From Piedraia hortae CBS 480.64 (lineage: Eukaryota), in the NCBI GenBank assembly GCA_010093745.1, contig MU005958.1, positions 434,001-498,000 of the forward strand: a DNA stretch of 64,000 nucleotides, in the 5' to 3' direction. The notes beneath the pieces were generated by a model. That model was not told the DNA's origin. It saw only the letters and a program-made list of their open reading frames with translations, and did no database searches. Of the stretch, positions 32,067-64,000 are shown piece after piece (position 1 is the first letter of the stretch; every line of letters begins with the position of its first letter). The position numbers and the translations under genes were made by a program.

Positions 32067-32371
32067 CTACACTATCAGCTGCATACGAGCATATCTCTTA
32101 CCCTTCTCGACGCGCGTCTCCTGCTCCAGAATCCATTTGACCAGTCGCACCAGACAAAAGCAGTGGTGACAGCCAGATTCGCCACACAACTTGAGCACCT
32201 CACGAATTTCCGCTTTGCTTGCGTTTACGAGATCGAGCTGTACAGACCCAGAAGAGGGTTGTGTTAGTTTAAGCAAACTGACGAGGGAGAAAGACTCACT
32301 CCGATAGGGGTCGTGCAGTCTTCAGGTGAGAGGAGCATGTTTCCCTTGGGTGGGACTGAGGGGGTGGGCAT
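32067..32371 (-). CDS. Putative small spliced orphan protein with a C-x4-CxxCxC cluster
   Basis: ATG 32371. Intron 32299-32238 (GTGAGT..ACTAAC..CAG) joins two ORFs in phase 0: MPTPSVPPKG..TTPIG/LDLVNASKAEIREVLKLCGESGCHHCFCLVRL. Confidence 0.35.
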
Positions 32372-34091
32372 CTTTTTGGGGGAGGGTGAGTATCGGTTGT
32401 TTGGGCAGAGGCTTGGGGAGCTTACGACTGAATGGATCTTTGGGAAGGAGTGACTGTTGCTGATGGGTTGATAGTTTACCCTTGTTGGGTGCTCCCACTG
32501 GAGGTGGGGAGTGGCGCAGGGGAGGTTTTTTTTATGCAAGCTTTCGCGCTATGACGCATGGGGAAGGTACGCTGGGGATAAAATTCCTACGCAATCGCGC
32601 GGGTGGGTGAGATGGTCTGTATCTACGAGGATTTCCATGGCTCGGTATGATACTCTACGCACGAGGTTCGGGTGCTTTGCACAGTGGGTGGCAGATCTTT
32701 GTATATATGAGAATATGATGGTGGATGACTTTTGAGGCAACATGACGAGAAGACTACACAGCTGCTGCTACGTCGCCGACAGGACCAGCCGATACTGTAC
32801 CATGATTGACCAGTTTATACGCCCCATATGCTCCCAGGAGCCTCTCTCGGCTCGGTTTTTCTGGTCGTCAATCCATTCGGAGAATCTATCGCCTTTGTCT
32901 TTAAACATGGAATCCGCAAGACATCTGCATTGACGCCAGGATTTAATTACTTTGACAACCGTGCGATGGTCGGCATCGGCGAGAAGGCTCTGGGGATGGT
33001 GTCAACCACTGCTACATACGAGGGAAGGGAAGCCCACGTCGATACACATGCAAGTGCAGGATATGGCAGGCACCTTGGACCCCTGATCTGAGAGGTTTGC
33101 ATTCTTTTCATCATCAGACATTCTAGGATTGCCTTGCAAACAGTCAGTAGTGTGGACTTGACTATGAGTGGACGTGGTACTTGACGAAACTCCGTGCAGG
33201 TCGATGTAAAAGAGAGTAGAAGAGAAAACGGAGCCAGGGATCTATTGCTATGAAGACGTATGCGTCTACGGTAACAATCTGGTGAACCAGTGTAAACGCC
33301 AAGGCGTGTGTGTCCACGGCAACCTTCGCCAAGGCTTAATGTCCCAAATGTATATGCCAAAATAAACGAAGATCATCACGCATCAAATACCTCAAGTAGC
33401 AAGACGCAATTGCCCTTTCACCTTTGAGACCACAAGAGGCACAAGAGGCACAAAAGGTCTCTGCTTAAGAGAAAGAGATAGATCGCCACCACGCAAACTT
33501 CAGCACATCATACCTCAGCTCACAGCCCACCCACCAGTTCCCAGTCCTTCATGACCGGACTGTCATTCGGAAGGCTGGACCGTATTTTCAATTTCAATCC
33601 CTTGTATTTCGGAAGGATGACCGAGCTTAAATAGAGGAAGGGGTGTTGGCGGTTCCGGTAGAGAGTTGTGAAAAGCGGGTATTATGGATCGAACGGAACA
33701 AGTAGGTTGATTGGGGTGGTAATGAAATGGTATCGCCCCACGTTGAAAGTAGAAAAGGACCACCAAAAGCTGCATAGCAAAAGCGAGTGACGATAAACCT
33801 TTACCTAGAACACCACACAGTCGCACTACCTTTGCATCTGTTCTTCGCCTGTTTCAGGGACCGCTGTGGCTCCTCGCCTCCGCTGTGCTCTAGCCCAGTC
33901 TGCTCTTGATGAGTAGGCAACGCTGGATATTCATGTAGCCCGTGGCTAGTTGGCATGCTCGGAAGAGTAGGCAATTTGGGTAATACCAAATTCATCGGTA
34001 ACTCTGAACTAGCTCCCGGTTCTGCACTGTGCATTGAAAGATCACGTGGCAGCCACTCTGGATCGTCTTCCATCTCTTCATCTAGGACGGG

Positions 34092-41029: not shown

Positions 41030-43933
41030 TCATGCCTGAACTCCTCCTTTTACGAAGTCATGAATCCGCTCCAGCGCAGCAGAAATGATTTCCTCATCCA
41101 CATACATTGTCCCGTCCACGACCGTCCAGGGGCCGTTCGAGGTGGGCAAAAAGAGGTTCTCCCTTAGATTTTTCATCAGCTGTTGCGGCGAGGAGGAATT
41201 TGGTTGGATTGTTATCAGCCACATTGGTTTTTGGGATTGTGGTCGCATTCCAACTGTGATTTCGAACGCAATTTTGAGGTCGTGGTAGCTGATTGCGTAG
41301 CGAGTTGATGAACGGGGGAAGACTCGCGCTTTTGGAGAGCTGTTTTCCAGCCTGTCAAGGGTGCGGAGGAGGGGGAGGGTGAATATTAAGGTGCGGATGA
41401 AGTTGTAGAAAGCGCCTTTGCGTGTGGACTGGAGCCGGGTTTGGAGAAAGGTTTTGATGCGGTTGTGAGGATTTGCAGAGCCTTTGGGCTCGAGGATGAG
41501 GTTTGCAGGTGGGCTGCCGTTTTCGTCGTATTGGAGTTGACATCGTAAGGGACCTGCTGCGTCGTATTGGAATGACATGCTGTCTAGCCAGGCGTGGTCG
41601 CAGGGGAGGTGGAATTGATGAAGGGTGTGAAGTCTTTGGTCGAGACTCTTGACGTTGGCGAGGCGGGTGGTTAAGAGGTCCATGTAGGGCGTCCCGTGCC
41701 TGAAGACGAGCTTCATCGCGAGCCCGGATATGGGGTTGATTCGGATCTTGGGATCCTCGACGCGATTCTCATGCTTGCGTAAGAATTTCAACGTGTTTTT
41801 GGGTGCGTTGAGACGGGCGTGAACAACGACTTTGCCCTGATCGGCCTGGTTCGCGGCGTCTGGGTCTCGCTGAATGCCAAAGTTTGTGATCCTTGTTATC
41901 CACGCCTTGGTCTCGCCTGGCATATAGAGGGCTGTGAAATTCGCGCTGGGCTGGTTAAGGTCGGGGGTTTCTTGTAACGGCAAAAGTGATCCGTCTAGGA
42001 CGGATGGAACCGCTTTGGTCGCACCAGGCGGCTGCATCTCCTTTTTGTCGAGCACCATCTTCTGCGCACATTGTTCGACATGTTTGAGCACGTCAAGGTA
42101 GGAAATTGGCTGTGCTGTTGCGAGTTGCAGGAGGTTGTCAATCTTTTGGCGCACCACAACTTCTTCTTCGCCTCCCAGCGCCCCTATCCACCACCGCTCG
42201 CCCGAGGGCCCTACACTCAGCACGAGCACTCTGTTCTCGTCCCAATCTGACGGATGATATACCAGTCTTACCTGGGTGTCTGGTGGCACTCCCATCACCG
42301 CCCGGGGTTGCATCTGACGCCACGGCAGCTGTTTTGCAAGCTGCTTGACGTGCTCCGTCACTGATCGCAACGAGACGAACATCAACCAATGTGCAATGTC
42401 AATATTTGCATCGGTATTCAGTCTCTTCTCGCACTCCGTTACAAAAGGCAAGGGGGGCGTGATGAAGAATCTCCCCGTGATGGGCTCCAGCTGAACGCAC
42501 AGCGGCGACGGCATTGCATCCATTTTGAGCTCAAGCTTGTAGACTTCATTGACAGCGTCAACCTCAACCTCTACCTTGAGGACCTTTATAGCAGTCGAAC
42601 GGGCTCTGATGCTGTCACGTATTGCGTCGAGTCTGAGCCTGCAGTGTTTTTCAACCACAATATTCATACAACGTTCCATGCTGAGCTTGACAAAGTCGAA
42701 ATCCAGTGCGTCATCGACTTGCTTTCCTTCGCGGAACCACCGGACTTGGATCTCCGACGTACGCGGCTTCCACGACGGGCCTTTTCTCCCACTTGAGATG
42801 CCGAATTCAACCCAGTTCTTGCGACCAGGCACATCAGCCCAATACTGAACGATGAGACTGTTGCGCATCTGCTGCAGTTGGAGCGAACTGAACCATCGAT
42901 TCTGCGTCACTAATTGAATAGTCTGATAGCGCAAGGTATTGATTTTATGCATCAGCACAAAATGGTGCAAGAACTCGTAGCCACCTTGAAGCCCTTTGAT
43001 GCCCAGTTCGTAGTTTGTGCGGCTCTCTACGTGAGCGCGAATGTGCTCGTTGCGGAGAGACGGGCAAGGAGAGAAAAGAAAGCGAGCATCGACGAAATAG
43101 AGGGGGGACGAATTATCGTAGTCGGCAACGGAGATTTCGACCTCGAATTCGTCGAGCACGCGGAAAGTGGCCCTTCCATTGGCCACATACCAATCCTCCA
43201 TGCATGGCGGGATTTTCTCTTCGAGAGTCAGTCGCCCCATAAGATTCACGTTCATCTCTTTCATCGTCTGCAGAAGCTGTTTGGCAGTCAACGGCTTCTT
43301 TGGGATGTAACCCAGATCGGGCCAGCCTTGCACTTCGCCCATAACCATGACCTCCATTGCGCCTTCAATGTTGGGTTGCGGCACTTGAAATGCCTCCATT
43401 TTATGCTGCAGTTGGATAATCGAAGTTAGGGCCATAGGAGCTGCCCACCGCTGCTTGTCAAACCAGACTTTCAGATCGATGAGCTTCGCCATGTCGTCGG
43501 CATTCTTGCTCCAATCCATGAGGACCAAAGTCTTGATGAACCGATCTCGTTGTTGCTGCGCAAACTCCATAAGCAGGCGCTTCTTCGCCACGCTGACCAC
43601 TGAAGTATCTTCAGGACCCGCATTCGGCGCACTTCCACCAGCGTCGCCGGTGCCCAGATCGGACATTTTGTTCAAGGTGTCTGACAGATCGTAGTAGCAT
43701 TGCTGGGCAACTCGCTCCACTAGCTTTCCCAGCGACCGGTTTGAATCCGTATTCCGCCATGATCCATCCAGTTTCGGCGGCGCATCTTGTAATCCGTTGA
43801 CGGCGTTGTTGTATATTTGCTTGAGATCGCCGGAATCTTCTGCCACGGTTCCACCCCCTTCCAGCCCTGCCACTTCTTTCTTTGACTCCACGGGCTCAGC
43901 TGCGCCGGAGCTCATGGTGATGCGGCCGGGCAT
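41030..43933 (-). CDS. MED14: Mediator subunit Med14 (Rgr1)
   Basis: LGKLVERVAQQCY, KKRLLMEFA..RDRFIKTLVL..WS, PQPNIEGA, VANGRATFRVLDEFEVEI and FLHHFVLMHKI. Probable start MPGRI at 43933. Confidence 0.9.
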   Translation of the reverse strand: MPGRITMSSGAAEPVESKKEVAGLEGGGTVAEDSGDLKQIYNNAVNGLQDAPPKLDGSWRNTDSNRSLGKLVERVAQQCYYDLSDTLNKMSDLGTGDAGGSAPNAGPEDTSVVSVAKKRLLMEFAQQQRDRFIKTLVLMDWSKNADDMAKLIDLKVWFDKQRWAAPMALTSIIQLQHKMEAFQVPQPNIEGAMEVMVMGEVQGWPDLGYIPKKPLTAKQLLQTMKEMNVNLMGRLTLEEKIPPCMEDWYVANGRATFRVLDEFEVEISVADYDNSSPLYFVDARFLFSPCPSLRNEHIRAHVESRTNYELGIKGLQGGYEFLHHFVLMHKINTLRYQTIQLVTQNRWFSSLQLQQMRNSLIVQYWADVPGRKNWVEFGISSGRKGPSWKPRTSEIQVRWFREGKQVDDALDFDFVKLSMERCMNIVVEKHCRLRLDAIRDSIRARSTAIKVLKVEVEVDAVNEVYKLELKMDAMPSPLCVQLEPITGRFFITPPLPFVTECEKRLNTDANIDIAHWLMFVSLRSVTEHVKQLAKQLPWRQMQPRAVMGVPPDTQVRLVYHPSDWDENRVLVLSVGPSGERWWIGALGGEEEVVVRQKIDNLLQLATAQPISYLDVLKHVEQCAQKMVLDKKEMQPPGATKAVPSVLDGSLLPLQETPDLNQPSANFTALYMPGETKAWITRITNFGIQRDPDAANQADQGKVVVHARLNAPKNTLKFLRKHENRVEDPKIRINPISGLAMKLVFRHGTPYMDLLTTRLANVKSLDQRLHTLHQFHLPCDHAWLDSMSFQYDAAGPLRCQLQYDENGSPPANLILEPKGSANPHNRIKTFLQTRLQSTRKGAFYNFIRTLIFTLPLLRTLDRLENSSPKARVFPRSSTRYAISYHDLKIAFEITVGMRPQSQKPMWLITIQPNSSSPQQLMKNLRENLFLPTSNGPWTVVDGTMYVDEEIISAALERIHDFVKGGVQA

Positions 43934-50802: not shown

Positions 50803-51387
50803 ATGCGCACCACACAGCGTTTTTCAGCAGACGGGGATGAGCAGACGCAGATATTCGTTAAAGACGTTACTGGGGATGGTGGGTATTCGTGGAAATGGCC
50901 GTGTCAGGCTGACATGTCATAAGCATTCTCTCTTTCCATTCCCACCGCGACAACCGTGGAGACGTTTGTTAACATGGTAGCGCTACGTAGCCAAGTGTCC
51001 CCCGACGACCTTCGCGTCGTATATGCCGGGCGTCAGCTGCAAGTATGCAGAGACGACAGTTCGCCGGCGCCGCCGACTGCCGCGGCCAGACCGACGCTCG
51101 CTGATCATGGCATCACGCACGAATCGACCATCTACCTGGCAGGCAGCATCCGCGGCGGCGCTCAGGGGAAAAAGGTGCGTTGCACCTATAGCGACTGCCG
51201 CGAATTCGCTCAGCGCATCGTTGGCGACTGCAGCTTCTGCACCGGCCACTTTTGCAGCAGACACCGCATGCTGGAAAATCACAGTTGCCCCGGTCTGGAA
51301 GACTGCAAGAATGAGGAGAAGCAGCGAAACAAGGAAAAGCTGGAACGCGAGCGGACAAAGCCCGTCAGGGGTCTGGGCACTGGCTAG
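50803..51387 (+). CDS. Ubiquitin-like plus AN1 zinc-finger protein (Tmc1-like)
   Basis: QIFVKDVTG, LRVVYAGRQL, TLADHGITHESTIYL..IRGG, then CTYSDC..CSFCTGHFCSRHRMLENHSC. Intron 50879-50923. Confidence 0.88.
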
Positions 51388-51872
51388 CCTGTAGGCTGAT
51401 AGTTATCGTTCATCTGTGTCTGTGTCTTTGGGAAGACGTCATGACCCCACATAACCTTGCCGGGATGTTCCCGCAAATGATACATCCAAATTTGCACAGA
51501 TGGTTACCGAGTTGGCCATCAAAATCTTGAAACAGTTTGAACCCCCAAGGGTGCAGTCATTGTGTAAACAGAGCTGCTGAATAGATCATGTGCTCGACGT
51601 CCCGTGCTTGGCTATCATGATAAGAACTCAATCTAGAGTGCAATTAAATTTCCTAGAGCACTGTCCACAAAACATACCGCGAGTAAAATTCAAGATAGTG
51701 ACCATGAGCAGTGATCCATCCGTCAAAATAGACTTCCTAGTCCAGTCATTGTCCCATGCGCACCACGCACTTTGAATTAAAACTCTCCCGCGCACAATTC
51801 CACATCATAAAAGAACACTCCATGCCACAAAACCCTACATTGAAGCTAATCATACACCCCCTCCCTCCCAAC

Positions 51873-54800
51873 TCAAACAATCGAACTTCCATCCCCCAAA
51901 TCCCTCACCACCCCCTCCCTGCACGTTCCCTCCTCCCCATTCCTCAACGCAAACGTATCCTCATAAACCCCCATCGCAAGACTCCTCACAAATGGCCTAA
52001 CCACAACCCTCGCAAACTCCCCGCGCGGCAGCGCCCTGATATCATTCCCATCGAGTCTCAACCCCTCGAGTCTCAACCCCCCTCTCGTCCCAACCTTCAA
52101 ACCGTCCTCAACCCCCAGAACATCATCCCCCTCCGCCCCCTCTTCCGCCCCCGCAAGCACCCCCGCAATTTGTTCCGCCAACGGTCCATCCCCCTCGGTA
52201 GAGCGATAAACCGCATCAGTCGAATCCGCAATAAAAAGCCACTGTCTCAGTAAAAACTCATCCGGAGCGAGAGAAACCAACTGATCGAGCAGCTTACAAG
52301 CTTGCAAAATCCCATTATTCGTCCAGCCTGATCCCCCTGAGGGGAGAACTGCGGTAAGCGCGTCGTCGAGGAGGTCGTCGATCAACGGCCACAAGGCCGA
52401 GAGGTTTGGAGGGGAGAAGGAGAGGGTTGCTGCGCGAGATAGGATTAGGACTTCTGCTTTGATGGTGGAGGAAGGAAAGGAGGATTCTGTTGCTGAAGAT
52501 AAATCGGCGATTTTTTCGAGGAGGGGTTTTAGGTGTGAGAGGTGGGTATCTTTTGGGGAGGAAAGGAGGATTAGGGTGATCCGGCGGAGGGTTAGTTGTG
52601 TTTTGCGGTCGGAGTCGAGACGCGTTGCGTTGGCGTTTACGCCAAATAATGAGCCGGCGGTTGAGGGCGGGGTGAGGCGGGAAAGTTGTTCAGTGAGGCG
52701 GTCGGGGTCGCGGAACATCCATTGGTGGATTATGGGTAGCCAGGGGGTTAGGGGGGAGGAGAAGATTCGGGCGTCGTGGATTGCGTCGTGGACTTCGCGC
52801 TTCCAGGACTTGGAGGTGGGTGATTTTCTTGAGATTTCGTGGAGGAGGGTTAAGATTTCTGGGGTTAGGTTGGTGGGGAAGGATTTGGAGTGGATTAGAG
52901 GCGTTATGATGCTGTTGGTTATGTTGTTCGTTGCAGTTATGATGCGTTCGGGCGTTTCGACGATTGTGTCAAGTTCGCGGACCGCGTCGGTTAGGACGGA
53001 GATGAGGTTGCTTGCTTTGGTGCGCTCGTCGTGGTCGGGGGTTGGGATGCCGGGTACGGTGGTTAGGCTGGCTGCTAGGAGACGTTGGAATATGTCTATG
53101 AGTTCGCGTCGCATTCGCCTTTGTTCGCTAAAGTTTGTATGGAGGGATTTTTGGGATAAGCATTGGACGAGGGATAGGAGAGGGGGTAGTGCTTGGCGAT
53201 ATGGCAAAGGGTTGGCGAGCACGTCCCTTAAAAAGGCGATGCAGTCCGTCCAGATCTCGTCCAGTGCGTCGTCTTCCAGAGAGTTGACGTACTGCAAGAG
53301 GAAAACAGCAATGTCGGCCGCTGTCATGTCCACACTCATCTGTCGTCCACTCTGTGTGTCGATTCGGCCGCAGAGTGCGTTTAGTATTGTAGGAACCACG
53401 TTCTTTGGACGGGATCCTTGCATGACATGCAAAAGATCCAACGCAGTCGAGACTTTATTGGAAAGCAGAGAAATCACCACCTCCAAGCTCTCAAGCGGCT
53501 CGACCATGAACATTTGCTCTAGCAAGTGACGCGCTTTGTGTCGAAGACGGAGTGAGTAATACGTCGTTGTTGCGCTGGAGCCATGATCATGCTCGTTGGA
53601 CCAGCCCCAGATCTTGAGGCATGTTTGTATGGAATCATGAAAGGCCAGCACAACCGTCAATCGACTGTTGGCCTGTGCCGTCTTGCTTGGTGGTCCTTCT
53701 GATTTGAAAACGCCCGATGTCATGGTCCCAAAGAGCCCTCGGTTAGGGACAGGAGATTGGGTGGCTTCTTCCGCAATCTGCTCCTGTGCAAGACAATCGT
53801 GTGCCCGTGCCAGGACCATCTCCAAGGCTTCCAAAAGGCCCAGACAGACTGCATCGGGACTCCACTCATGCACATCTTCTTGCTCTGTCATCCTCACCAG
53901 CTCAGAAAACACTGCATCCAGCTCGCCGCAGAGACATTCTACCAGCGGCAGCAGGCTCGCGAATATCGCATTGGAAAATGTTGGCAGCATGCTGGACAGA
54001 AACCTCAGCCAGTGTGCCATGTGTCGACGGCCTGATTTTGAGGTGAAACCCATTCGGAGACACTTTAGCAGCTGCGGAGGTGGCGGTGCTTGTGTGGTCA
54101 TCAAACTGGGTGTGTTGCTGGCCTTTTTTTCTACCAGCCGGAGGTTGATAGCATCAGGTATCATGTCTAAGATGAGGCCTTGGAGGTCATCCTCGTCATT
54201 GGCAACACAGCCCAGCAACCGATCCATCAGGACAGAGTCCAGTGCCATTTCCCGGAACTGGTTAGACACCGGGCTTGTCATTAAAATGCGAAGAACGTTT
54301 AAGCACCGACGGTCAAGTTCCGTTGAAGTCTGTCGCGACACCATCTGCGAGCACACTTGAGCGATATACCTCGCTCCTTCTGATTCTGACTTGGCATTGC
54401 TGAGGCTGTTCCATGTCCAATCGCCTCCGTCACGGAGGAGACCCTCAAGCTGTCCGAGAACATAGACCAAACCCCTCTGTTTATCCCGCACAACTCGAAG
54501 ACGAGTCTTTGGATCTTCTACTCTCTCCTCATCTTCTTTCAGGATAATCTCTAGCCGTTCAAAGATAATTTCAAAAACATACCGAAGCGTTGGGAGAGCT
54601 GCAAGCCAGTCTCTTGCCGTCTCAGCAGCAACGCTTGGTGTTGCGCCCAATACGTCCACAATCCACGACAATGGCTCTGCTAGGATTTGCCTTCTTCGCT
54701 CAAATTTTGCAGCATCAGCCATTGCCGTGGCTGCACTGCTTCGTCGGGTCAACGTGGCTCCGCCGTTCTTAGTGGCTACCACTTGCGCGGGCATTGAATG

Positions 54801-57043
54801 GTTCCAGAGGATTGCAAACCGTCTGACTGCTTCATCGTCAAGAGGCGATTTTTCTGTTTGGCATTTCGTCCCAGATCGCATCTGAGTGATCAGCAACGCT
54901 TGCAACTTGTTATCATCGCCTGCTAGCTTGTTCAGCTGCCACAGAGCTCTCACTGCTTCAACATGATATTTGGGTCGAGAAGGTGAAAGATGTGCCCACA
55001 GCTGCGCAGTCAGCAATGGCTGTAGCTGGAAGAGTTCGTTGGCGGTGATGCGACCAGCTGAGTTGTATTCTGTCGTCAAGGATAATATTGCGTTCAGAAC
55101 TGAAAAGGAAACTGGACATTCAGTTATCCACCCCTGAATTTCCATTGGCAATGTTGGAATGGGACCAACATCGCGCGTGATGGAGAGGAGATTGTCCATG
55201 ACTGGCACGAGTTCGCAAAAAGTTGAGCTCTGCTTATCCTTGATAGTACGCCGGACTAAGCTCGTGACCTGGTGAAGAAGAGTCGCAGCCAGAGTGGAAC
55301 GGCCCATGGGCAACGAAACTTTGCCAGCTGATTGGGGCAGTTCCCGATAGAACCTTGCAATGATTGAGCTATTGTCTTCTTCAACTTCTTCCGATCCATC
55401 ACCCTTGAGCGCTCTCTCAGGAATTAGCTGGGACAGTTTGTCTGCGATTTCCAAAGCCAAGGTGGTCAATATACCTGTAGGCGTTGACTGTCGGTTGAGC
55501 AGATCAAAGATTAGAGAAAGCGTGAGGGGGGCGTGAATGAGGACCATCTCTTCGTCTGACACATTAAACGTCCCTAGAGCCCAATTGACTAGACGCAGGT
55601 TTTTTCCAGACCGTTCCTCAAAGGCTTTTCGAACGTAATTGCAAAAATTTGTCCAAACAAGACCGGCTTCCACTCCATCAAAAAACAGCGATGCACTTCG
55701 CATAACTTCCTTCACTTCCGAAGCGGATGCAGTCTGGCCGAACGTATACACACTTTCCAATGCTGGTGGGAATACTTCAGTGAGGATCGATCCGCCAATC
55801 TCCCAGCGATCCATCAACGATAGACAAATCCGAAGCGGACGAGCAACTTGGGCCGCATTATTCGGATGTTCATCTAGCAGACTGAGCATCACACGCCGCA
55901 GGGATCCTTCGCCATATTTCCGAAAGTACTCCCGCTGAGGTGCATCTTCCTGACTCCCAGATTCCTCTTTGCTCGGTCCCACAAACCAGGACCAAAGACG
56001 TCTGTTCAAACTCATGTCACGCCTCAGCAAAACTTGGACGGTTGCAGCTACTAATCGGTCGAGGTCTTCTTGATCAATCTTCTCCCGCAAGACCGGAGAG
56101 TTTAGCGGTAGATGTGTGACTAGCAGGTTCAGGAATTCTCTTTGGGCCAAGACCTGGTCGTCTGACAGTCCGGCAACAAATGCTCTGACAAGCAGCCCAG
56201 GTTCTGGACATATAACGACATAAGCCTCGTCCGAAAGGCTGTCTGTTGTGAAGTTTGGCAGACGACGTGACATGTAATTCAGCATCCCTGGCCTTCTTGA
56301 CGGACTGGTGATGACACATAGGAAGAGACATTGCCAAAAGTACCCATTTCGGGGCTCGGCAGGATCTGGCTGGGCAAATTCGTCTTCCAGTTTCTGCAAA
56401 ATCGCAAATGCACGATCAAAGTCCTCGCCCGATTCCTCTTCAATAGCAGGGCTAAGGCCTAAAATGAGTGATTTCAAAGCCGGTCGTAATGTTTTTGCCG
56501 GTAACCGAACAATGTGGTGTTCAAAAAGGGCATAGAGGGCAGGTCTGACGGAGAGCGAGGCAAATGAGAGCACGGAGGCCAATCCGGGAAGGTAATCAGT
56601 CAGGTGCAAGGACAAGTGATGGGCGCCAAAGGTCGAGAAGATATAAGAGTACACTTCGAGAGCTTTTTGATGGACACCAGAGGGCAGAGCTGGGTTCATG
56701 CATTGTGCAAGTTTGAAGGCTATGCTTCTACTGTGCGGTAGTATGGGAGAGTCTTTGGGATGCGTTTGTATCGCTTTAAGAAGGCGACCCAAAAAGGCGA
56801 TATAGTCGGCCCATTCTTCGGGAGATGTTTCCCAGGTAGCAAGAGCTTTTTCGATTACAGTTGCATATCTGCGGAGGCCCTTATCTGCCTTGTATAGTCC
56901 TATATACCATGAGCTACTGTCCACTACTGATACCCCACGCGCATACCGTCCTCTGCCGCTCGTCGCGCTACGCGAGGCGCAGGCGATGAACGCCCCGAGC
57001 TTGCAGGCGACTGGGAGCGATTACCAGCGATATCCAAGTTCAT
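51873..57043 (-). CDS. DOP1: Dopey/Dop1 (DopA) endosome-Golgi trafficking protein
   Basis: EWADYIAFLGRLLKA, LAQCMNPALPSGVHQKALEVY and LRRDMSLNRRLWSWF. First exon 57043-56947 (MNLDIAG..SPASSGRSSP) is joined by intron 56946-56900. Confidence 0.93.
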
Positions 57044-57162
57044 CTTCGTACATTCTAGCTGTCCTACGTGCCAATCGCAAGTTTCATATTCTGGTTGAAC
57101 GTGGCTTGGTGCCTCAGGCCGCAACGCGCACCTCCACCTCCACGGACGGAGTGAAGGTGAAG

Positions 57163-58767
57163 ATGTCTAGAGAATCTACGCCGCCGCCTTTACCTCGGAG
57201 ACCTGTAAAGGATACAGAACCTCCCAAGCCAGCTTCTCTCCGCCTCTCAAAGTCGTCTTCGAGACCTCAGCTGCTATCTCCAGCCACTACAGCGCTGTCC
57301 CTGACTGATGTATTAAGCGGGGAAAGCACTCCAGCGAGTCGGAGTGTGTCCAGAGAACAATCGCTTGATCACTTTCATCGTTCAAGCATTGACAGCGATG
57401 TTAGTAGGAGTATATCAGGAGAATTCCATGATGATTCGTTGGATTTACAAACAGACGACTCCATCAGTCTTCAATTTCAACACGAGTTTGATGCACTAGA
57501 AGGACTAGATGAAGAAGACTTGATCCGCAAATGGGGAGCCAAGCTTAAACACTTTTTCATCTTGTCAGCCTCGGGCAAGCCCATCTATAGCCGTCATGGC
57601 GACGACCAGCTCATCAGCAACTACATTGGCATAGCCCAAACACTGATATCCTTTTACCAAGACGCCAATGACAATCTTAAGTCGTTTACAGCCGGCGACA
57701 CCCGGTTCGTCATGCTGTCAGAAGGATACTTGAACCTCGTAGCCATAAGCCGATTGGGTGAAAGCGAAGGTCAACTACGCTCCCAGCTGGAAAGCCTCTA
57801 CATGCAGATCTTATCCGCACTGACTTTGCCGTCCATGGAAAAAATGTTCAAGCTTCGCCCGTCTACTGATCTTCGTCGGCCACTCGCGGGAACAGACGTG
57901 CTGCTGGACAGTCTGGCAGACGGCTTCACACGAGGCTCACCTTCAACTCTCTTATCCGCACTAGAATGCCTGCGTCTTCATAAAAGCCATCGAGAGGTGA
58001 TTGACGAAACATTTCTCAGAGTTCGTTCTCCAAATTTGCTCTACGGGTTGATCGTAGCAGCTGGTCGTCTGGTTAGCGTAGTTCGGCCTAAGAAGCATTC
58101 TCTACACCCGGGCGACCTCCACTTGATTTTCAATATGCTCTTTGAAGCGAGCAACATCCGCGCTGGTGGTGGGGAGAACTGGATTCCTCTTTCTCTGCCG
58201 GGTTTCCACAAGAACGGTTACCTCTACATGTACGTTAGTTTCGTCACCGAGGAGGTAGATGACGCCTTAGCCGTCGTTCTTATCAGCGCGAACAGGGAAG
58301 GCTTCTATGAGCTGCGTGAGATGCGAGACAGTCTACTCGAACAACTCGAGCAAAACGAAGGCATGTCCCATCTTAAAGCAGCCATGAGCAAAGGCCGGGC
58401 TTCATGTTCTCAAATGGTTCCCGGCTCTGTCCTGAAGCATTTCCTCTACAAGTCCCGCGCTCACGTGCAGTTTACCATGCCTTCATTTGAGCCTTTATTC
58501 GGAGACGCTGTGTTACGAAGGAAGCTGCTAAGCTGGTATGGCAGTTTGCATGAAAGCATCCATTCACGCGCGGCACGGTTAAAAGTGCAACATCGGTCAA
58601 CACCGTACATGTCGGGCTTGGCATGGGAAACAGCGCAGTTTGAACTCTATTGCGTGGCAGGTCCCAATGCGTCGAGGAACGACCTCTTGCACGCTGCCAA
58701 CCGGGTTGTGAAGCAAATGAAACGAGAGGAGGAAAAAGTTTTCATAATCGGTGGAGCAGTCTTCTAA
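57163..58767 (+). CDS. MON1: Vacuolar fusion protein Mon1 (Rab7 GEF subunit)
   Basis: KLKHFFILSASGKPIYSRHG, YMQILSALT, HSLHPGDLHLIFN, WIPLSLPGF and EEKVFIIGGAVF. Confidence 0.93.
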   Translation: MSRESTPPPLPRRPVKDTEPPKPASLRLSKSSSRPQLLSPATTALSLTDVLSGESTPASRSVSREQSLDHFHRSSIDSDVSRSISGEFHDDSLDLQTDDSISLQFQHEFDALEGLDEEDLIRKWGAKLKHFFILSASGKPIYSRHGDDQLISNYIGIAQTLISFYQDANDNLKSFTAGDTRFVMLSEGYLNLVAISRLGESEGQLRSQLESLYMQILSALTLPSMEKMFKLRPSTDLRRPLAGTDVLLDSLADGFTRGSPSTLLSALECLRLHKSHREVIDETFLRVRSPNLLYGLIVAAGRLVSVVRPKKHSLHPGDLHLIFNMLFEASNIRAGGGENWIPLSLPGFHKNGYLYMYVSFVTEEVDDALAVVLISANREGFYELREMRDSLLEQLEQNEGMSHLKAAMSKGRASCSQMVPGSVLKHFLYKSRAHVQFTMPSFEPLFGDAVLRRKLLSWYGSLHESIHSRAARLKVQHRSTPYMSGLAWETAQFELYCVAGPNASRNDLLHAANRVVKQMKREEEKVFIIGGAVF

Positions 58768-61064
58768 TCATGTCTAACCAGCCATGTGCGAGCTATGGTC
58801 TGAAATCGCATCACATCATTTTCCAGCCTCTTCACACGAGCATCCATCACTGCTCGCCAAGCCCTTTGCAGAACTGTTGTTGCTTCGACGAGACGGTGTT
58901 GTGTCCGCACCACTGCGGCGCAGGAATGTGCCAGTCGACAGAGAGCGAGTCTCCTGGTTATCTGCCTCCTTGCCAGCATTAGCCGATAAGCTCTTGAAAT
59001 CTTGACCGCGGATTTGTGCGTTTTGGCCAGATGTAACAACCTCGACGCAAGGAACGCGAGGTTGGCAATAACGGCATGTCGCGAAGGAACAAATCCGTCT
59101 TTCGCAGTCAACTGCGAGACGAAAGTCTTGCTGCATCCAATCGCAGCCAGCTTGTCCGCCAGTCCGGCAGGTTGTCCGGAAATAAACTCTCCGAACCCAT
59201 CCAAAATAGCCTCATAAACCTCCCTCCCACATTCCGCAAACATCTCCGTCGTCAGAGCAGAACCATAGTACCCTTCCGCCCACTCCATCAACTTCCCCTC
59301 CCCAGCAAGTCCCTCCCCAACCAACTTATTCAATCCAAACGGACACACGATCCTCCACAACAAACTGAGCGTCCGTTCCCTATGTCCATCCACCAAATCT
59401 TCCGCCTGTACCCCAGAAACGTCAACCCCCTTCTCCCTCAACCCATCCAACGCCCTTTGGGTATTACCCAACCTCTCCCTCCTAGTCCTACACTGCCCCC
59501 CCACCCCTTTTCCACCAAACAAAACAACCCCCAACCGCCCCAAAAGCACCCCATCCCGAACCCCAACTGCCAAATCTTTTACTCCCCAATCCTCATCCTC
59601 ATCCTGCACAAACCCAACCTCAAAACCCAAAAATCCCAACCTTCGAACCAAATCCCCCGTCGACGGAATCACAACCTTCCCCAACCTAACAATCATCTCC
59701 CTCGAAGCCTTAACCCCCCCCTCACACCTAAAAACCAACCCCCCCTTAATCCCACCCCGATCCAAAACCCAAATAACCATCAACGCACGAAGGACACAAA
59801 CCCACCACTCCCCTTCGACAAAAAACCTCTTCAAGAAAGCCCTCACCCTGACCGAGGGCGGAATGGTGCGGCCAACGACGACTTCAGCCGCGGCGCGGAG
59901 CCATCCCTCTTCATACACTTCCAGGAGGGAGAGGAATGCTTCGCGAATCCCGAGATCGGTGGAGAGATGGACCGGCTTTGCTGGCGCGAGGGTCCCATAC
60001 CGCAAGCTTTGTTCGAGCCGGGTGTGCAGGGTTACTGTTGTGGGGGTGTGGTAGATTTTAAGAAGAGGTTCCCGCCGGGGGGGAGGGGGGGGTTGTGCGG
60101 TGGGGGTGAGGAGGGTGTTGATTATTTCACGCAGGGAGACTTCTTGGTGGGAGAGCCAGTGGGGCAAGGGGGTGTAGAGGCTTGGGTGGGGGATGTGGGG
60201 TAGGGGTTGGTAAGACTCCTTTGGGGGATGGAGGGCTGCTGGTTTTGGGTGGTCGTTTTGGGTTGTGATTGTCATGATCAGTTCCGCAGGGGGGGAGAAG
60301 GTCTCTTTCTTCCCACCGTTTTGGCTGGGGATCGTAGTTGTGGACTTGCAGGTGGGTTTGGGATTTTGCGGACTTTGGGGGGTGCGGGTTTGGGAGGGCT
60401 TCGCCGTGACTGATTGCTTGAGAGGACGCGGGAACGCCGATGTATCGGCTGGTGATACCACTTTTGCGGATACAGATGGCTTTTTCATTTTTCGCTTCGT
60501 GTCTGGGAGGAGGTTATCTTTCTCACCGCCCTGGCCTGGTATGTCCACTTTGTGGTTTGTATGGGTGGGTTTCGGGGTTATTGAACCCAGTGGGACTCGT
60601 TTGTGAGGGGGCTTCGCCGCGCCTTCTTGTTTTGAAGAACGATTATTGGGCCGCTTCGCGCTGGGTAACATGAATGTATCGTCTAGTAATCCCGCTTTTG
60701 TGAATGATTTCTTCCTGTTCCGGTTCGCGTCTGGGAGAAGATTCTCTTTTCCACCGCCCTGGCCTGGGATGTCCACTGTGCAATTGGTGTTGTTGGGTTT
60801 GGGAGTTATGGTACCCAGTGGTGTGCGTCTTTGGGGTGTCGGCTTCACCGCGTCTGCTTTTTTTGGAGACCGCTTGTTAGGACGCTTCGCAATGGGGAAC
60901 ATCCATGTATCGTCTAGGGTTTTGTCTTTTGCGCCGGGATGGATCGTCAACATAGCTGTTGTGGAGTCTGGCGGGATGTAAATTGTTCGTCTTCGCCGGT
61001 CGACAGGGGACATGTTCATATTGGGTTTCAGGGGTGAAAAGGCGAGATGCAGATTTGTCGCCAT
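58764..61064 (-). CDS. ASPM/Sha1-like calmodulin-binding spindle protein (CH domain plus IQ motifs)
   Basis: RRRTIYIPPD, TIHPG, DLGIREAFL, WLRAAAEVVVGR, CH motif VKDLAVGVRDGVLLGRL..EDLVDGHRERTLSLLW and IQ-like LQRAWR. Start uncertain; the frame is open to 61355. Confidence 0.8.
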   Translation of the reverse strand: MATNLHLAFSPLKPNMNMSPVDRRRRTIYIPPDSTTAMLTIHPGAKDKTLDDTWMFPIAKRPNKRSPKKADAVKPTPQRRTPLGTITPKPNNTNCTVDIPGQGGGKENLLPDANRNRKKSFTKAGLLDDTFMLPSAKRPNNRSSKQEGAAKPPHKRVPLGSITPKPTHTNHKVDIPGQGGEKDNLLPDTKRKMKKPSVSAKVVSPADTSAFPRPLKQSVTAKPSQTRTPQSPQNPKPTCKSTTTIPSQNGGKKETFSPPAELIMTITTQNDHPKPAALHPPKESYQPLPHIPHPSLYTPLPHWLSHQEVSLREIINTLLTPTAQPPPPPRREPLLKIYHTPTTVTLHTRLEQSLRYGTLAPAKPVHLSTDLGIREAFLSLLEVYEEGWLRAAAEVVVGRTIPPSVRVRAFLKRFFVEGEWWVCVLRALMVIWVLDRGGIKGGLVFRCEGGVKASREMIVRLGKVVIPSTGDLVRRLGFLGFEVGFVQDEDEDWGVKDLAVGVRDGVLLGRLGVVLFGGKGVGGQCRTRRERLGNTQRALDGLREKGVDVSGVQAEDLVDGHRERTLSLLWRIVCPFGLNKLVGEGLAGEGKLMEWAEGYYGSALTTEMFAECGREVYEAILDGFGEFISGQPAGLADKLAAIGCSKTFVSQLTAKDGFVPSRHAVIANLAFLASRLLHLAKTHKSAVKISRAYRLMLARRQITRRLALCRLAHSCAAVVRTQHRLVEATTVLQRAWRAVMDARVKRLENDVMRFQTIARTWLVRHD
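60481..60917 (-). repeat. Intragenic tandem duplication, 231-bp offset, in the ASPM-like gene
   Basis: Copy 1: LDDTWMFPIAKRPNKRS..RRTPLGTITPKP..VDIPGQGGGKENLLPD. Copy 2: LDDTFMLPSAKRPNNRS..KRVPLGSITPKP..VDIPGQGGEKDNLLPD. Confidence 0.92.
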
Positions 61065-62249
61065 TGTGTGGATTTTCGATAGAGGTGTTTGCTCAATTGA
61101 TGGTTTGGCGCGTGGATGAGTATTTGGGTCGGTCGGTTGGCGTGGCAACGGCGTAGGTAGCGGGTTAAGGTTTGGAGTTTCACACACAATACACACCATG
61201 TGACAGCAACTTTCACTACTCAGGTTTTTCAGGTCTGAACTTTGGTCCATTGTTATTTGCCTCTGGACCAGCCGCGCTAGATATCGACAAGTGCTTTTCG
61301 CGTAGCTGATCATCGCAACTTTTACTCCAAACCCTGCATCGCATCTTGTGTGCATAAAGCTCGATCATACAACCACTCAATATCGTCATATAGCCGGACT
61401 TGGACTCTGCGAACACTGGACAGATTGAATAAACCTTTATAGTGGAATGGCAGCGCCTCCAATATGGTCTTCACGCAAGCGTAAACACTGGATATGGCGA
61501 ACCGAAATTTCGTGCCATATCGATCCGCCGAATCCAGGGTTAGAGTGTAGCTGCATTGATAGAACCAAAAAGTGGGCTGGAGATCAGCTCTGATGAGTAT
61601 GGTGAAAGGGGTGCGTTGGATGTAAGTTCGCATATGCACTGAGAATCAATTTCGAGTCTGTGATGCCTGTTACATTCTTTTGGAAAATTGGGGGTTGGGC
61701 AACAGATGGCAGTCCATCTGTGTGCCTAGTCAACCAATCCATCGATCAACTAATGAGCAGAATACCCACTTCAATATCGGCGTAAAGTTACGGAAATGCC
61801 CGCTCAATAATGCATACATACTACTGAACCATGAGTTTCTTTCTCCAATATCGTCGCAAAGTTACAGAAAGGCTCATACAATAGTATATTGAGTCATAGT
61901 GTAGCAACTACTTTCTCCATTATTGACTCAAAGTCACATAGATACCTATTCAATAGTGCGCGAGCCGGCATGCCCCTTTTTATTCCGTGAGAGCAAATGA
62001 ATTGCCTCCGTATGTCAGCGTCGAGCGCTCTTCACTAACTCATTCCGAGGAAACTTTCGAGAATCTCTACTGAGACGACGAGTTTTCCCCGAGCAGGACT
62101 GTACGTTAACCTTCCCTGCTCATCAAAAAGCTCTGAGTAGTCACTTAATATCTCGCCGACATTGCTGCAGAAAATCAGAAAAGGCATGGTAGAAATGTAT
62201 TGGTGTAGTTCATGTCATAAGATGACGATAGTTATCCTCCGACTACTCA

Positions 62250-62674
62250 TCACTGCCAAACCACCCCCACCCCAGCCTTCTCCCCCTCTCCCCCCGAAAA
62301 CTCATCAAACCTCGCATCCCTATCCCACACATTCCCCAACTCTGATTCCTCCCTCCTTCGACGCAGCAACACGCTTAAAATATCGAATCCGATGCATCGG
62401 GATCTACTTCTCCTTATCTTTATCCCTAACCCACGCATCTGCATGAAGCTCCTTCATCCCCTCAAACCTCTCCGCGTATCCAATCACATAGTCCGCAACG
62501 TCCAGGTTCGGGTCCCAGTAGAGTCTATTCAGAATTTTCGGTCCGGGTGTTAATTTTCCTTTGGGGCCTTGAGATTGGAGTTGGGAGGGGGGGGGGTTAT
62601 CCTGCGTGAGTTCTTTGCCTTGGAGTTGGTGTGGCGGTGTAGTTCGACACGCGGGTTGGTGTGCTCGGTGGCAT
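62250..62674 (-). pseudogene. MJ1316 (DUF504/LENG9-type) RNA cyclic-end recognition domain pseudogene
   Basis: A frame absent from the ORF track reads KGKLTPGPKILNRLYWDPNLDVADYVIGYAERFEGMKE..WVRDKDKEK*IPMHRIRYFKR. After a frameshift it continues VWDRDARFDEFSG. TAG at 62406-62404; the ATG at 62674 is out of frame. Confidence 0.8.
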
Positions 62675-64000
62675 TGTTGTGTTTAAATTTAGGACAATGG
62701 GATAGTGCGAGAGTATGCTGATGGGTGCGCCTTGCCATTGTTTGAGCTGAAAAATAATCGTGGTGTTTGTTTAAGTTGTTGAGTTATGTTGGGTGTGGTT
62801 GGGATTTTTATGGAGGGATGCTGTGTGACTGACTTGTCGAGGACTACTGTTGCGAGGTGTCTTTTTCCATGGCAAAGGGGGGGGGGGTTTCTGTGTATCA
62901 CCAGACCATCTTGTCGTTTTTGACCCTAGCGGACCCAATTGCATCGTCACACCACTTCCATATCGCAATGCCACATTAGCATCCAAGATAAATCATCTTA
63001 TGACCCATGAGCTTTCAGTCGATCTGTTCACTGATCAACACCAAGCTCACAAGATCTTTCTATGCGAATGAGTCATGATGAGAATATTCCGCTGTCTCAC
63101 TTACGAATTTCACACACATATTAACAATATTGCTTGGATTGATTCTTGGGTTTGGTTCAAATCGTTGTGGATGAACATAATTCAGTCAATATTGGCATGA
63201 TAAGTATCTCCAGGCGATTGGTAAATTTGAAGGACTCAACCATCCTAGGAAGATAGAATTGTGCGTACTATGATACCTGCCTACTTTTATGTGCTGCAAC
63301 GCAATAGTGCACGGTCATACGTTATCGGACGCCGGCGTGGCACCAAATCTGTTATGGAAATCTGATTGGCTTCAATCTTCTATGAGAACACTATTCTACT
63401 ATACCACCATGCATCGATTAGCTTCCATCGCAAACGTCTGAAAAGCTTGCTTCGGTGGGAAAAACTATCTTTCCCTGCTTCATCCAAGACAATATCACAA
63501 TCGCCGAGCAGCAGATCCGTCACGGCTTGTGACATCTCCAGTGTTCATTCCCCCTCAATCCGAAAAAGACTCCTGTGATGCGCAGTTCGGATGAAAAGGC
63601 ATGAATACACCCATGTTGCCCAGTTCCTAAGGCGGGAATGGAAACTGAACGGAGAGGACCATGTACCGTATACCTCATGTTAAAGGTGATTAGGTTTCAC
63701 AGACCTACTTATCCCGTCATCTGACATCAAGTTCTATGTACTTGGTATATATCTTTTTCTTTTTTCTTAAAAAGAAAAAAAAGCCGAAAGATGAACAGCC
63801 GTGGCAGTCTTACCCCCGTTGCCAGAGTGCCGTGGCAATTTCAGAGGTATAGATGTACAGAGATGGGTTCGAAGATATCAAAGTTTGAGCTGTAAAGGAA
63901 ATCTGCTCAGCTCGTTTTTACTTCTTGGCAGAGGGAACTCCGCCCATGCTGCAGATTTTGTAATTACAACCCTTTCCTCGTCGCGAGGCCTTCCTATCCT

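Follow-up and report, generated by a model that had tools for sequence, protein, structure and literature searches.

Two-armed islands of strand skew in coding exons of the fungus Piedraia hortae

Within one exon on contig MU005958.1 of Piedraia hortae CBS 480.64, the plus strand passes from C/A-rich to G/T-rich DNA, and the protein encoded on the opposite strand changes in composition with it. What could make the two halves of a single coding sequence diverge in this way? An initial annotation proposed a localized strand-asymmetric mutator that acts outward from a fixed point, and likened its polarity to that of a bidirectional replication origin; as alternatives it named an R-loop or a recurrent break/resection site. 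The question is addressed here across the window, i.e., the whole stretch of 64,000 nucleotides that was analysed (positions 434,001 to 498,000 of the contig), and all coordinates below are counted from its first letter.

The host gene lies on the minus strand (58764..61250) and is a single exon of 828 aa (P0011) within an open frame of 866 codons from stop to stop (58764..61364). Its product is an ASPM-like or Sha1-like protein with CH and IQ domains: the IQ match scores 23.9 bits against a Pfam cut-off of 20.3, the CH match also reaches 23.9 bits but falls under its cut-off of 26, and 117 non-self homologues were found (best 37% identical), which their source names as ASPM-like or Sha1. Read contigs mapped to the window have no joint inside the gene. 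Both halves of the skewed region are in one exon of one gene, as had been annotated, and that exon is a single intron-free open frame.

The left arm of this island (island 2; 59101..59850) is C/A-rich on the plus strand and G/T-rich on the minus strand, which is both the sense and the outward-running strand (G.436, T.291, A.176, C.097). Third-position GC skew is +0.6 to +1.0, the sense four-fold sites (n=97) are G49 T34 A10 C4, and the product is the Gly/Val/Trp/Leu-rich part of the CH-domain region. Polarity flips across an unskewed centre of 139 bp (59851..59989; G49 T22 A29 C39, GC 0.63, keto skew 0.02). In the right arm (59990..60450) the plus strand is G/T-rich (G.446, T.276, A.135, C.143) and the sense strand is C/A-rich (four-fold sites, n=91: C48 G17 A15 T11), encoding the Pro/Thr/His/Gln-rich part of the protein. 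On either side of the centre, the G/T excess falls on the outward 5' to 3' strand, the polarity first described. A weak tail follows on the right (60451..61150), with T over A on the plus strand, equivalent to A over T on the sense strand, a keto skew of 0.27-0.31 in 300-bp windows and little silent-site GC skew (sense four-fold sites over 61250-60500, n=130: G32 T19 A43 C36); its C/A lean is present in orthologues too. Downstream of the island, 440 nt of the gene are even in composition. The largest absolute value of (G+T-A-C)/n in 300-bp windows is 0.607, whereas no shuffled version of the window, out of 200, went above 0.273. The base counts of the initial annotation are exact (C31 G3 at 59461-59520; G37 C6 at 60061-60120), the peptides that it quoted are correct minus-strand readings, and its broader ranges are strongly skewed (59220-59850, G49 T108 A185 C289, GC skew -0.71; 59950-60420, G211 T130 A62 C68, GC skew +0.51). 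Its limits for the island are slightly too narrow: the left arm begins at ~59100-59200 and the right arm ends at ~60450, with the weaker tail to ~61150.

The same arrangement recurs in the window. Island 1 lies in a minus-strand Dopey/DopA gene (51873..56699; 1608 aa, database protein P0129), whose homologues carry PF04118 and related Dopey domains (best 49-50% identical). The gene likely has a further upstream exon, and read contigs contain a splice-like joint at 56898/56946. The left arm (51626..52230, G/T-rich on the minus strand and C/A-rich on the plus strand) comprises the 3' end of the gene and ~250 nt past the stop codon; its sense four-fold sites (n=75) are G46 T17 A4 C8, and its non-coding part (51626-51872) has a keto skew of -0.31. 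Around the centre (52231..52340) the third-position skew changes sign between ~52420 and 52330. The right arm (52341..53230), within the gene and G/T-rich on the plus strand, has a sense third-position GC skew of -0.62 to -1.0, apart from one window at -0.50, and sense four-fold sites (n=154) of C91 A42 T13 G8. Upstream of the island, 3.5 kb of the gene is even in composition. Island 3 overlies a small minus-strand MJ1316-domain gene (62250..62783), which is read in pieces in three frames and has a PF04457 match on 62407-62682 (E 1.9e-9). Its left arm (62200..62500, outward strand minus) is the weaker, with a keto skew of -0.28 and a GC skew of -0.55 to -0.60, and its right arm (62501..62900, outward strand plus; keto skew +0.43) extends past the gene into non-coding DNA (keto skew +0.49 over 62784-62900). 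Island 4, also weaker, has its right arm (41250..41800, outward strand plus) in the 3' part of Med14, identified by PF08638. The plus-strand third-position keto skew is +0.33 to +0.73 (mostly at least 0.5) at 41270-41720 and -0.2 below 41230; the sign flips at ~41250 and the left arm is faint.

Polarity is identical in the three strong islands (ASPM-like, Dopey and MJ1316) and the weaker Med14 island. The four centres, at ~41.25, 52.3, 59.9 and 62.5 kb, are all inside exons and span 22 kb, with a spacing of 2.6-11 kb. Arms are 0.45-0.85 kb long with abrupt outer ends, the unskewed centres measure ~110-140 bp, and whole islands span ~1.35-1.6 kb (islands 1 and 2) or ~0.7 kb (island 3). The window has 25 other ORFs that are 200 aa or longer; measured in 50-codon windows, 24 of them show no skew beyond +/-0.52, and Med14 alone goes further (-0.64). 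Weak flips at ~13.45, 31.0 and 32.2 kb are in DNA that has no long ORF. In the DNA of relatives, 1,014,284 bp from 72 metagenome loci that surround relatives of Dopey yielded 4 two-armed pairs at a threshold of 0.35, all of them amino-to-keto (strongest 0.46/0.41), although two of these loci, L059 and L070, seem to be one. These pairs were rejected as instances of the same phenomenon: they are too weak, none is in Dopey, and those inspected are in low-complexity or gene-end DNA.

Does the skew originate in the DNA or in the proteins? It is strongest at four-fold (silent) sites, with third-position skew of up to 1.0, and it runs on into non-coding flanks. Over four arms, 342 of 417 four-fold sites have G or T on the outward 5' to 3' strand, while background four-fold sites (n=605) hold each base at 25% (G153 T144 A155 C153); GC at these sites is also raised in the arms (271/417 versus 306/605). 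In 150-nt windows at a step of 30, islands 1-3 have a mean absolute GC skew of 0.49-0.52 and TA skew of 0.21-0.29, compared with 0.12-0.15 and 0.10-0.15 in the rest of the window. The TA skew changes sign along with the GC skew at the islands, and the two are correlated there (r 0.75-0.93; elsewhere -0.26 to -0.01). The composition is not shared by the aligned orthologues (101 for ASPM-like, 112 for Dopey). At codon positions 1-2 the ASPM-like arms deviate from 97-101 orthologues per window by z of -2.7 to -4.7 and +3.3 to +6.9, the Dopey arms deviate from 112 orthologues more weakly with the same sign, and in the alignments of 102 and 113 sequences it is the proteins from the window that stand furthest out. 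Homology is continuous through both ASPM-like arms. The frame is intact, the arms holding 0 stops where the alternative sense frames hold 2-17 (2-15 for the ASPM-like gene). An excess of deletions was considered as part of the process and set aside, being inconsistent between genes: of 348 orthologue columns that are well filled, 112 have no counterpart in the ASPM-like G/T arm, whereas the Dopey arms lack only 5-6%, like the rest of Dopey. Silent sites, non-coding flanks and unskewed orthologues together place the cause on the DNA rather than in the protein or codon choice, in agreement with the initial annotation.

Two independent read sets match the assembly. Unstranded contigs from X1 and from X2, which belongs to a different study, align to 51000-61079 with neither a differing letter nor an indel, and none has a joint within an island; one X2 contig with a GT..AG-type joint elsewhere covers parts of two arms. 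The X2 contigs are of spliced-RNA type, its label as RNA is a guess, and its cover stops at ~61425, left of island 3. Both runs have contigs that break off at runs of G/C within islands (X1 at 60192-60229; X2 with a poly-G loose end at 60106). Contig depth is higher round the centres, although depth cannot rank parts of a gene.

The direction of change was estimated by polarising amino-acid differences at 488 conserved columns, of which 195 had changed. By this crude measure, a parsimony on non-synonymous sites at 37-50% identity, the pooled gains on the outward strand were G 101.7, T 57.3, A 37.0 and C 28.0, and the control was balanced. The inferred changes are not transitions only: C>G, T>G and A>G occur at roughly the same level, and C>T and A>T follow. 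Surviving C and A occur in neighbour contexts, CpG included, at counts near the expectation from composition, except that GA is more and TA less frequent, as coding sequence gives. Sequence shared by the centres was also sought. No motif common to the four exceeded a random-segment null by k-mer sharing, and GGGTCCCA, which occurs at two centres, is present 2 times in the window against 2.19 expected. A hairpin or palindrome between the arms was rejected (best inverted match 34 nt at 74%), as was a selected RNA duplex (fold z +0.47 against shuffles). When seven arms were compared with the 64-kb window by blastn, no non-self match exceeded 46 nt, save for a tandem repeat in the ASPM-like N-terminal region (73% over 214 nt).

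Given the silent-site skew, its lineage specificity, the absence of assembly error and the recurrence, the islands very probably record a site-anchored, strand-asymmetric substitution bias at the DNA level. The outward 5' to 3' strand has gained G, and to a lesser degree T, and lost C and A over 0.45-0.85 kb on each side of an unskewed centre of ~110-140 bp; silent sites are near saturation, and the protein has been dragged along where selection allows.

What acts at the centres? We tentatively suggest that each is a recurrent start site of recombination-type repair synthesis. The centre would be a stable site of repeated initiation, for example a hotspot of breaks whose width is about that of the neutral centre. 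In each event, outward resynthesis across a resected tract would involve the same strand in a given arm, and this strand, when displaced, would briefly be single-stranded, so that errors and lesions on it could be fixed as changes to G and T. Repetition at a stable site over evolutionary time may then yield two mirror-image arms with sharp outer ends. Mean meiotic resection in yeast is ~0.8 kb. The length and abrupt ends of the arms fit such a tract-limited process, the density of the centres, four in 22 kb, is like that of hotspots, and the raised GC at four-fold sites also fits. Damage to the 3' single-stranded tail after 5' to 3' resection is the best-documented break-associated mutagenesis, but its geometry predicts the opposite polarity, and the repair model must therefore rest on the less documented nascent-strand route. 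No polymerase signature that we know of raises C>G, T>G and A>G equally on a nascent strand. Insertion of C opposite abasic sites of an exposed template would account for such a spectrum no less well, a point in favour of transcription or a lagging-strand template. As for parallels, GRINS have the same signature and sit in gene-conversion tracts (PMC8256042, in excerpt), but the arms here are single-copy within the window, leaving the link to conversion between repeats with no counterpart. In excerpts on Zymoseptoria, another dothideomycete genus, recombination hotspots occur in coding regions, in favour of the model, but sister species have only 6% and 20% of hotspots in common, which counters the long-lived hotspots that saturation needs, and GC-biased conversion is weak or absent (PMC5844332).

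The main rival source of the asymmetry, somewhat less probable, is transcription, with each neutral centre acting as an intragenic bidirectional promoter. Divergent transcripts from a nucleosome-free region would form R-loops in which the exposed non-template strand is the outward 5' to 3' strand of each arm. Deamination of C would give T, base loss followed by C insertion opposite abasic sites would give G, and since a G-rich non-template strand favours more R-loops the skew could reinforce itself. Insertion of C in this manner is the Rev1 "C rule" of yeast. The polarity fits, the neutral centre, at 110-139 bp, matches a promoter gap in size, and the near-equality of C>G, T>G and A>G, followed by C>T and A>T, is what lesion bypass on a G-rich strand would leave. 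This reading requires promoters inside coding exons of four genes, however, and outside the islands the four-fold sites in the transcribed DNA of these genes are perfectly even, so transcription alone is not the cause of the skew. The average fungal gene has the same sense order, C-biased 5' and then G-biased 3', in a pattern that its authors think is transcription-coupled, but AT skew in that excerpted account is uniform along genes (PMC3315797), whereas here it flips with GC skew.

The origin favoured by the initial annotation, with the outward strand gaining G and T as lagging-strand template or leading nascent strand, is improbable. The upward jump from C/A-rich to G/T-rich on the plus strand is indeed found, and is the same in all four islands; bacterial origins and upward skew jumps in human DNA share this polarity. 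The four same-polarity centres, 2.6-11 kb apart in 22 kb, and arms of under 1 kb make origins unlikely, as the asymmetry ends after 0.45-0.85 kb and forks would go much further. All centres are exonic, that of island 2 is 63% GC, and to our knowledge a silent-site skew of 0.8-1.0 is far above any known eukaryotic origin-associated skew. Selection on the mRNA or protein, whether for a long-range C/A-G/U duplex, control of elongation by C content or an amino-acid need, is very hard to credit. In composition the halves complement each other, and they are paired in the predicted minimum-energy fold; adaptive C-avoidance has been suggested for the genome-average pattern (PMC3315797, in excerpt). 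Yet the fold (-378.8 kcal/mol) is no better than that of shuffles (-382.9 +/- 8.7 kcal/mol), 13 of 20 of which were as good; the inter-arm match is short, the skew continues into non-coding flanks, orthologues manage without it, and the four host genes are unrelated. Least credible of all is an artefact such as misassembly, sequencing-chemistry conversion, an unspliced intron or an inserted element. Contig breaks at G/C runs might suggest one, but the agreement of both read sets across the islands, the jointed X2 contig and the orthologue homology spanning both arms in an intact frame argue against it.

Returning to site-anchored substitution, the observations may indicate, at a little short of an even chance, that a fungal nuclear genome has active or recently active strand-specific hypermutation, as a eukaryotic single-copy counterpart of the bacterial GRINS. 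Such a process would convert the outward strand towards G/T over ~0.5-0.85 kb on each side of fixed intragenic starts of ~100-150 bp, rewriting Dopey, an ASPM-like spindle protein and Med14 without killing them. Kilobase patches of C/A and then G/T on one strand point to a local one-strand mutation process that has so far been described mainly in bacteria, and it is very unusual for eukaryotic nuclear DNA to show, in single-copy genes of an essential type, a local bias that overrides codon neutrality and in part the constraint on the protein. A search of the open-access literature, supplements aside, found no published description of islands like these in the nuclear genes of fungi. If this reading is correct, the fixed polarity would be the first geometric clue to the GRINS mechanism, pointing to a fixed start, shared across domains of life, from which DNA is synthesised outward or a strand is exposed, and a two-armed fungal system would make the question testable with break, origin, R-loop and nascent-RNA maps. 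Since background four-fold sites are even, the islands are clean records of one mutational process, including its strand, start, reach and base preferences. There are also practical effects: protein composition is distorted, domain detection is weakened (as with CH below its Pfam cut-off), long G/C runs break assemblies and spurious antisense ORFs of ~400 codons arise.

How do the islands compare with known asymmetries? Kataegis-type clusters at resected breaks or in break-induced replication are single somatic events with C-specific changes. They resemble the islands in that a fixed point marks the switch of the mutated strand and the tract limits the extent, but the islands are a fixed equilibrium on an evolutionary scale that involves all four bases, and damage to resection tails has the opposite polarity. 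Replication-associated asymmetry, as at bacterial ori/ter, human origin jumps and yeast centromeric origins, extends over tens of kb to Mb, with an amplitude of ~0.1 in eukaryotes; origins are spaced tens of kb apart and the asymmetry persists along each replichore. It too places the G/T excess on the strand running 5' to 3' away from the start on both sides, but differs from the islands in arm length, centre spacing and silent-site amplitude. GC-skewed R-loop promoters have a G-rich non-template strand downstream of the start, are two-armed where bidirectional and extend from below a kilobase to a kilobase. The islands share the G-rich outward strand, the two arms and a similar extent, although known cases are at promoters rather than in exons and are several-fold weaker. 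Fungal promoters have been reported, in excerpt, as C-biased on the sense strand (PMC555766; PMC3315797), a sign opposite to that of R-loop promoters.

Closer in lineage are the GC skews of opposite sign that fungal genes have at their 5' and 3' ends, described for 64 species that include two Dothideomycetes and attributed to mutation of unknown mechanism (McLean and Tirosh, 2011; PMC3315797, in excerpt). The sense strand is likewise C-biased and then G-biased in the Dopey, ASPM-like and MJ1316 genes, although a two-armed pattern of this polarity reads so on either strand. Amino-acid usage and four-fold sites are affected in both, and the skew reaches UTRs there and non-coding flanks here. The published pattern is, however, weak, a gradient in the genome average that is fixed to start and stop codons and has uniform AT skew (PMC3315797, in excerpt), whereas the islands are bounded, near saturation and away from gene ends, with a TA skew that flips along with the GC skew, and in Med14 it is the 3' part that has a C/A-rich sense strand.

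It is the signature of GRINS, intense and correlated GC and TA skews, that the islands match. In the excerpted account these are duplicated regions of more than 500 bp that are more than 80% identical to another copy, found in polyketide synthase clusters and other bacterial genes; they are recognized by mean absolute GC and TA skews both above 0.15 in 150-nt windows at a step of 30, and are linked to gene conversion, their chemistry and mechanism being unknown (PMC8256042). The only eukaryotic cases given are amoeba and choanoflagellate PKS genes, and the stem "fung" is absent from the text (PMC8256042). Differences are evident: the islands are in single-copy housekeeping genes of a fungus, no second copy above 80% DNA identity is present within the 64-kb window, and their consistent two-armed form, with a fixed polarity around a neutral centre, is not described for GRINS in that excerpted account (PMC8256042). 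Against this, islands 1-3 exceed both the skew threshold (GC 0.49-0.52, TA 0.21-0.29) and the 500-bp length. In both systems GC and TA skew correlate positively with each other and are strongest at third codon positions, signs change abruptly within 1 kb, and proteins shift between Gly/Val/Cys/Trp and Pro/Thr/His/Gln, with function retained in GRINS proteins and an intact frame, known from sequence, retained here.

The skew island in the ASPM-like gene (island 2) comprises a left arm (about 59101-59850) in which the + strand is C/A-rich and a right arm (about 59990-60450) in which it is G/T-rich, separated by an unskewed centre of 139 bp (59851-59989; keto skew, (G+T-A-C)/n, of 0.02). In 200-bp windows the extremes of GC skew are -0.81 and +0.66, and the top keto skew over 300 bp, 0.607, compares with at most 0.273 in 200 shuffles. 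The initial annotation had described this flip and given base counts for two lines of sequence (31 C and 3 G; 37 G and 6 C), which are exact on recount; its description agrees with the recomputed composition, and the observation is real and strong. Both arms lie inside a single minus-strand open frame (58764..61364), with no stops in the true frame of the arms against 2-15 in the other two sense frames. The product (P0011, 828 aa) carries an IQ motif and a calponin-homology domain in Pfam, the latter at 23.9 bits, slightly under the cut-off of 26. Its 117 non-self homologues, named ASPM-like or Sha1 at source, are in Dothideomycetes (top identity 37%).

Contigs from two public runs of different studies cover 51000-61079 with no differences or indels, and no joint falls within island 2. 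One contig of the second run (X2), which also spans parts of two arms, lacks 47 nt at 56898/56946 whose minus-strand ends are GT..AG, and thus derives from spliced RNA. Island 2 is therefore not a misassembly, an intron or an insertion. The skipped segment (56898-56946) indicates that Dopey has an intron close to its 5' end. The Dopey protein hit P0129 begins downstream of this intron and has 1608 aa where orthologues have about 1800, so one or more first exons may be missing from the gene model. Of the window's 12 runs of at least seven G or C, eight fall in islands 2 and 3 (59496-60295 and 62587-62887), the longest being G10 and G11; run lengths there may be uncertain because the contigs of both runs break at these points.

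Positions 60476-60917, in the part of the ASPM-like gene that encodes its disordered N-terminal region, hold a tandem repeat of about 228-231 nt period (60476-60633 and 60704-60861 are 72% identical, 60590-60686 and 60821-60917 75%; blastn gives 73% over 214 nt), and upstream of the gene a 47-nt unit occurs three times in direct orientation at 61765-61957 (spacing 72-74 nt, 72-74% identical). The frames of Mon1 (+ strand, three longin domains) and the ASPM-like gene (minus strand) converge and finish within 4 bp of each other at 58764-58767, so their 3' ends must overlap. Residues 441-690 of P0011 (59200-59870, the G/T-rich arm of the gene) lack 112 of 348 columns filled in at least 80% of orthologues (32%), compared with 9-10% beside this arm; the Dopey arms show no comparable loss. 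On the + strand, antisense to the genes, two open frames cross the islands (388 codons at 59037-60203 and 414 codons at 52285-53529); they are most likely by-products of stop-poor composition, not genes.

Within the ASPM-like gene the skew is greatest at third codon positions, where GC skew on the sense strand lies between -0.6 and -0.7 in the 5' arm and between +0.76 and +1.0 across most of the 3' arm. Four-fold degenerate sites number C48 G17 A15 T11 in the 5' arm (n=91) and G49 T34 A10 C4 in the 3' arm (n=97). Background silent sites are free of any codon bias, with G153 T144 A155 C153 (n=605) in the unskewed part of Dopey. The alignment took those of hits P0012-P0123 that reach 900 aa, 101 orthologues in all, leaving out of the 117 the five lowest-scoring (P0124-P0128) and eleven shorter ones. 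They do not share the composition of island 2: base make-up from codon positions 1-2 departs from theirs, with z between -2.7 and -4.7 in the 5' arm and between +3.3 and +6.9 in the 3' arm's core, and none of them has a comparable skew profile. Non-coding flanks are also skewed (keto skew is -0.31 over 51626-51872 and +0.49 over 62784-62900). The skew thus acts on DNA, not on protein. The initial annotation had named orthologues of like composition, unskewed synonymous sites and misassembly as grounds for doubt; all were checked and none holds.

The keto-skew map reveals three strong two-armed islands in the window. Island 1 (51626-53230) lies over Dopey's 3' end and runs some 250 nt past the stop, and island 3 (62200-62900) lies over a small MJ1316-domain gene (PF04457, E 1.9e-9), extending into non-coding DNA; a weaker island 4 changes sign at about 41250, within the 3' part of Med14. 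All four change from C/A-rich to G/T-rich along the + strand, a pattern that reads alike on the minus strand and is therefore uninformative on gene direction. Island 1 repeats the key tests: third-position GC skew first lies between -0.62 and -1.0, apart from one window at -0.50, and then between +0.54 and +1.0, with four-fold sites of C91 A42 T13 G8 followed by G46 T17 A4 C8. The amino-acid shift against 112 Dopey orthologues (best identity 49-50%) is smaller than in the ASPM-like protein, as expected for a more constrained protein. On the outward strand, running 5' to 3' away from the centre, the six strong arms are nearly alike in composition (G.37-.45, T.26-.35, A.13-.25, C.10-.14). Pooled over four arms, this strand has G or T at 342 of 417 four-fold sites and a purine at 272 (z 6.2 against one half), while GC stands at 271/417 compared with 306/605 in the background. 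Elsewhere, skew in 50-codon windows stays within ±0.52 in 24 of 25 other ORFs of 200 aa or more, the exception being Med14 at -0.64. Three weaker flips of the same polarity (about 13200-14200, 30700-31700 and 31900-32800) lie in stretches without long ORFs. The MJ1316-domain gene (62250-62783), not covered by RNA contigs, is readable just in pieces in three frames, which could be due to very short introns or to frameshifts at G/C runs.

The arms neither match each other as inverted copies (best match 34 nt at 74%) nor repeat any other part of the window, and a selected mRNA fold is rejected, the segment being no more stable than shuffles (z +0.47). Motif sharing among island centres does not exceed a random-segment null, and the neighbour context of surviving bases is unremarkable. 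The window's sole two copies of GGGTCCCA (59990-59997 and 62510-62517) are both at island centres; their number is about what chance predicts (2 observed, 2.19 expected in the window) and island 1 has no copy.

The direction of change was polarised from amino-acid differences at strongly conserved orthologue columns (488 columns in four arms, 293 unchanged), a crude approach relying on parsimony, non-synonymous sites and deep divergence. On the outward strand the estimated changes are C>G 36.3, T>G 33.0, A>G 32.3, A>T 23.7, C>T 22.7 and C>A 21.3, and net gains G 101.7, T 57.3, A 37.0 and C 28.0; changes are balanced in a control region of Dopey. Since all three bases appear to change to G, and gains are led by G and then T, the process would not consist of transitions alone, with G a sink for all three other bases and T a second sink.

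What kind of event could leave this pattern? The geometry shown is a neutral centre, 110-139 bp wide, flanked by two arms that hold a plateau for 0.45-0.85 kb and end abruptly; in each arm, G and T are enriched on the strand leading 5' to 3' from the centre. A replication origin, divergent transcription and outward resynthesis after a break would all fit this geometry. The initial annotation's general reading, a local strand-asymmetric mutator working outward from a fixed point, is supported, but its replication-origin version is not: leading-strand synthesis or lagging-template exposure at the centre is unlikely given four centres inside 22 kb, arms that end in less than 1 kb and the exonic position of every centre. 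Divergent transcription, exposing the non-template strand in each arm, is doubtful. Yeast inserts C opposite abasic sites, and the spectrum of changes to G fits such insertion on an exposed strand, where G-richness would also reinforce R-loop formation; however, four bidirectional promoters inside genes would be required, and silent sites are perfectly even elsewhere in the same transcribed genes.

Slightly ahead of this, though still tentative, is a break at the centre followed by resection, after which strands would be resynthesised outward across the resected tracts. It is preferred because the islands are tract-like in extent and hotspot-like in density, silent-site GC is raised, and GRINS (regions with intense, correlated GC/TA skews, mainly bacterial), the only phenomenon on record with such a signature, are described as located in gene-conversion tracts (PMC8256042). 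Damage to resected 3' tails would predict the opposite polarity, so the break model must rest on the nascent strand. In the dothideomycete Zymoseptoria, hotspots are described as occurring in coding regions and turning over fast, with weak GC-biased conversion (PMC5844332); by analogy, the rapid turnover and weak bias would count against repair synthesis. About a third of the probability falls to causes beyond those named.

How do the islands compare with known systems? Metagenomic DNA surrounding Dopey relatives (1.01 Mb) contains only four two-armed pairs (three if loci L059 and L070 are one), far weaker, all of the same polarity and none within Dopey. McLean and Tirosh describe a genome-average skew pattern in 64 fungi, ascribed to mutational causes not known, with the same sense-strand order as the islands (PMC3315797). 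That pattern is described as weak, tied to gene ends and uniform in AT skew, and the islands are therefore not simply its extreme tail. In the openly accessible literature that was searched, such islands are described in no fungal nuclear gene. The islands match GRINS in skew strength, third-position dominance, the Gly/Val/Trp versus Pro/Thr/His shift and the correlation of GC and TA skews (r 0.75-0.93, against about 0 elsewhere in the window); the duplication that defines GRINS is absent within the window, and they are therefore not filed as such. The GRINS paper touches on single-copy skewed regions in passing; the eukaryotic cases it reports come only from PKS genes of amoebae and choanoflagellates, and fungi are not mentioned (PMC8256042). 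The islands are best described as GRINS-like, single-copy, two-armed skew patches in fungal housekeeping genes, of unproven mechanism, and add a new form to a poorly understood skew phenomenon.
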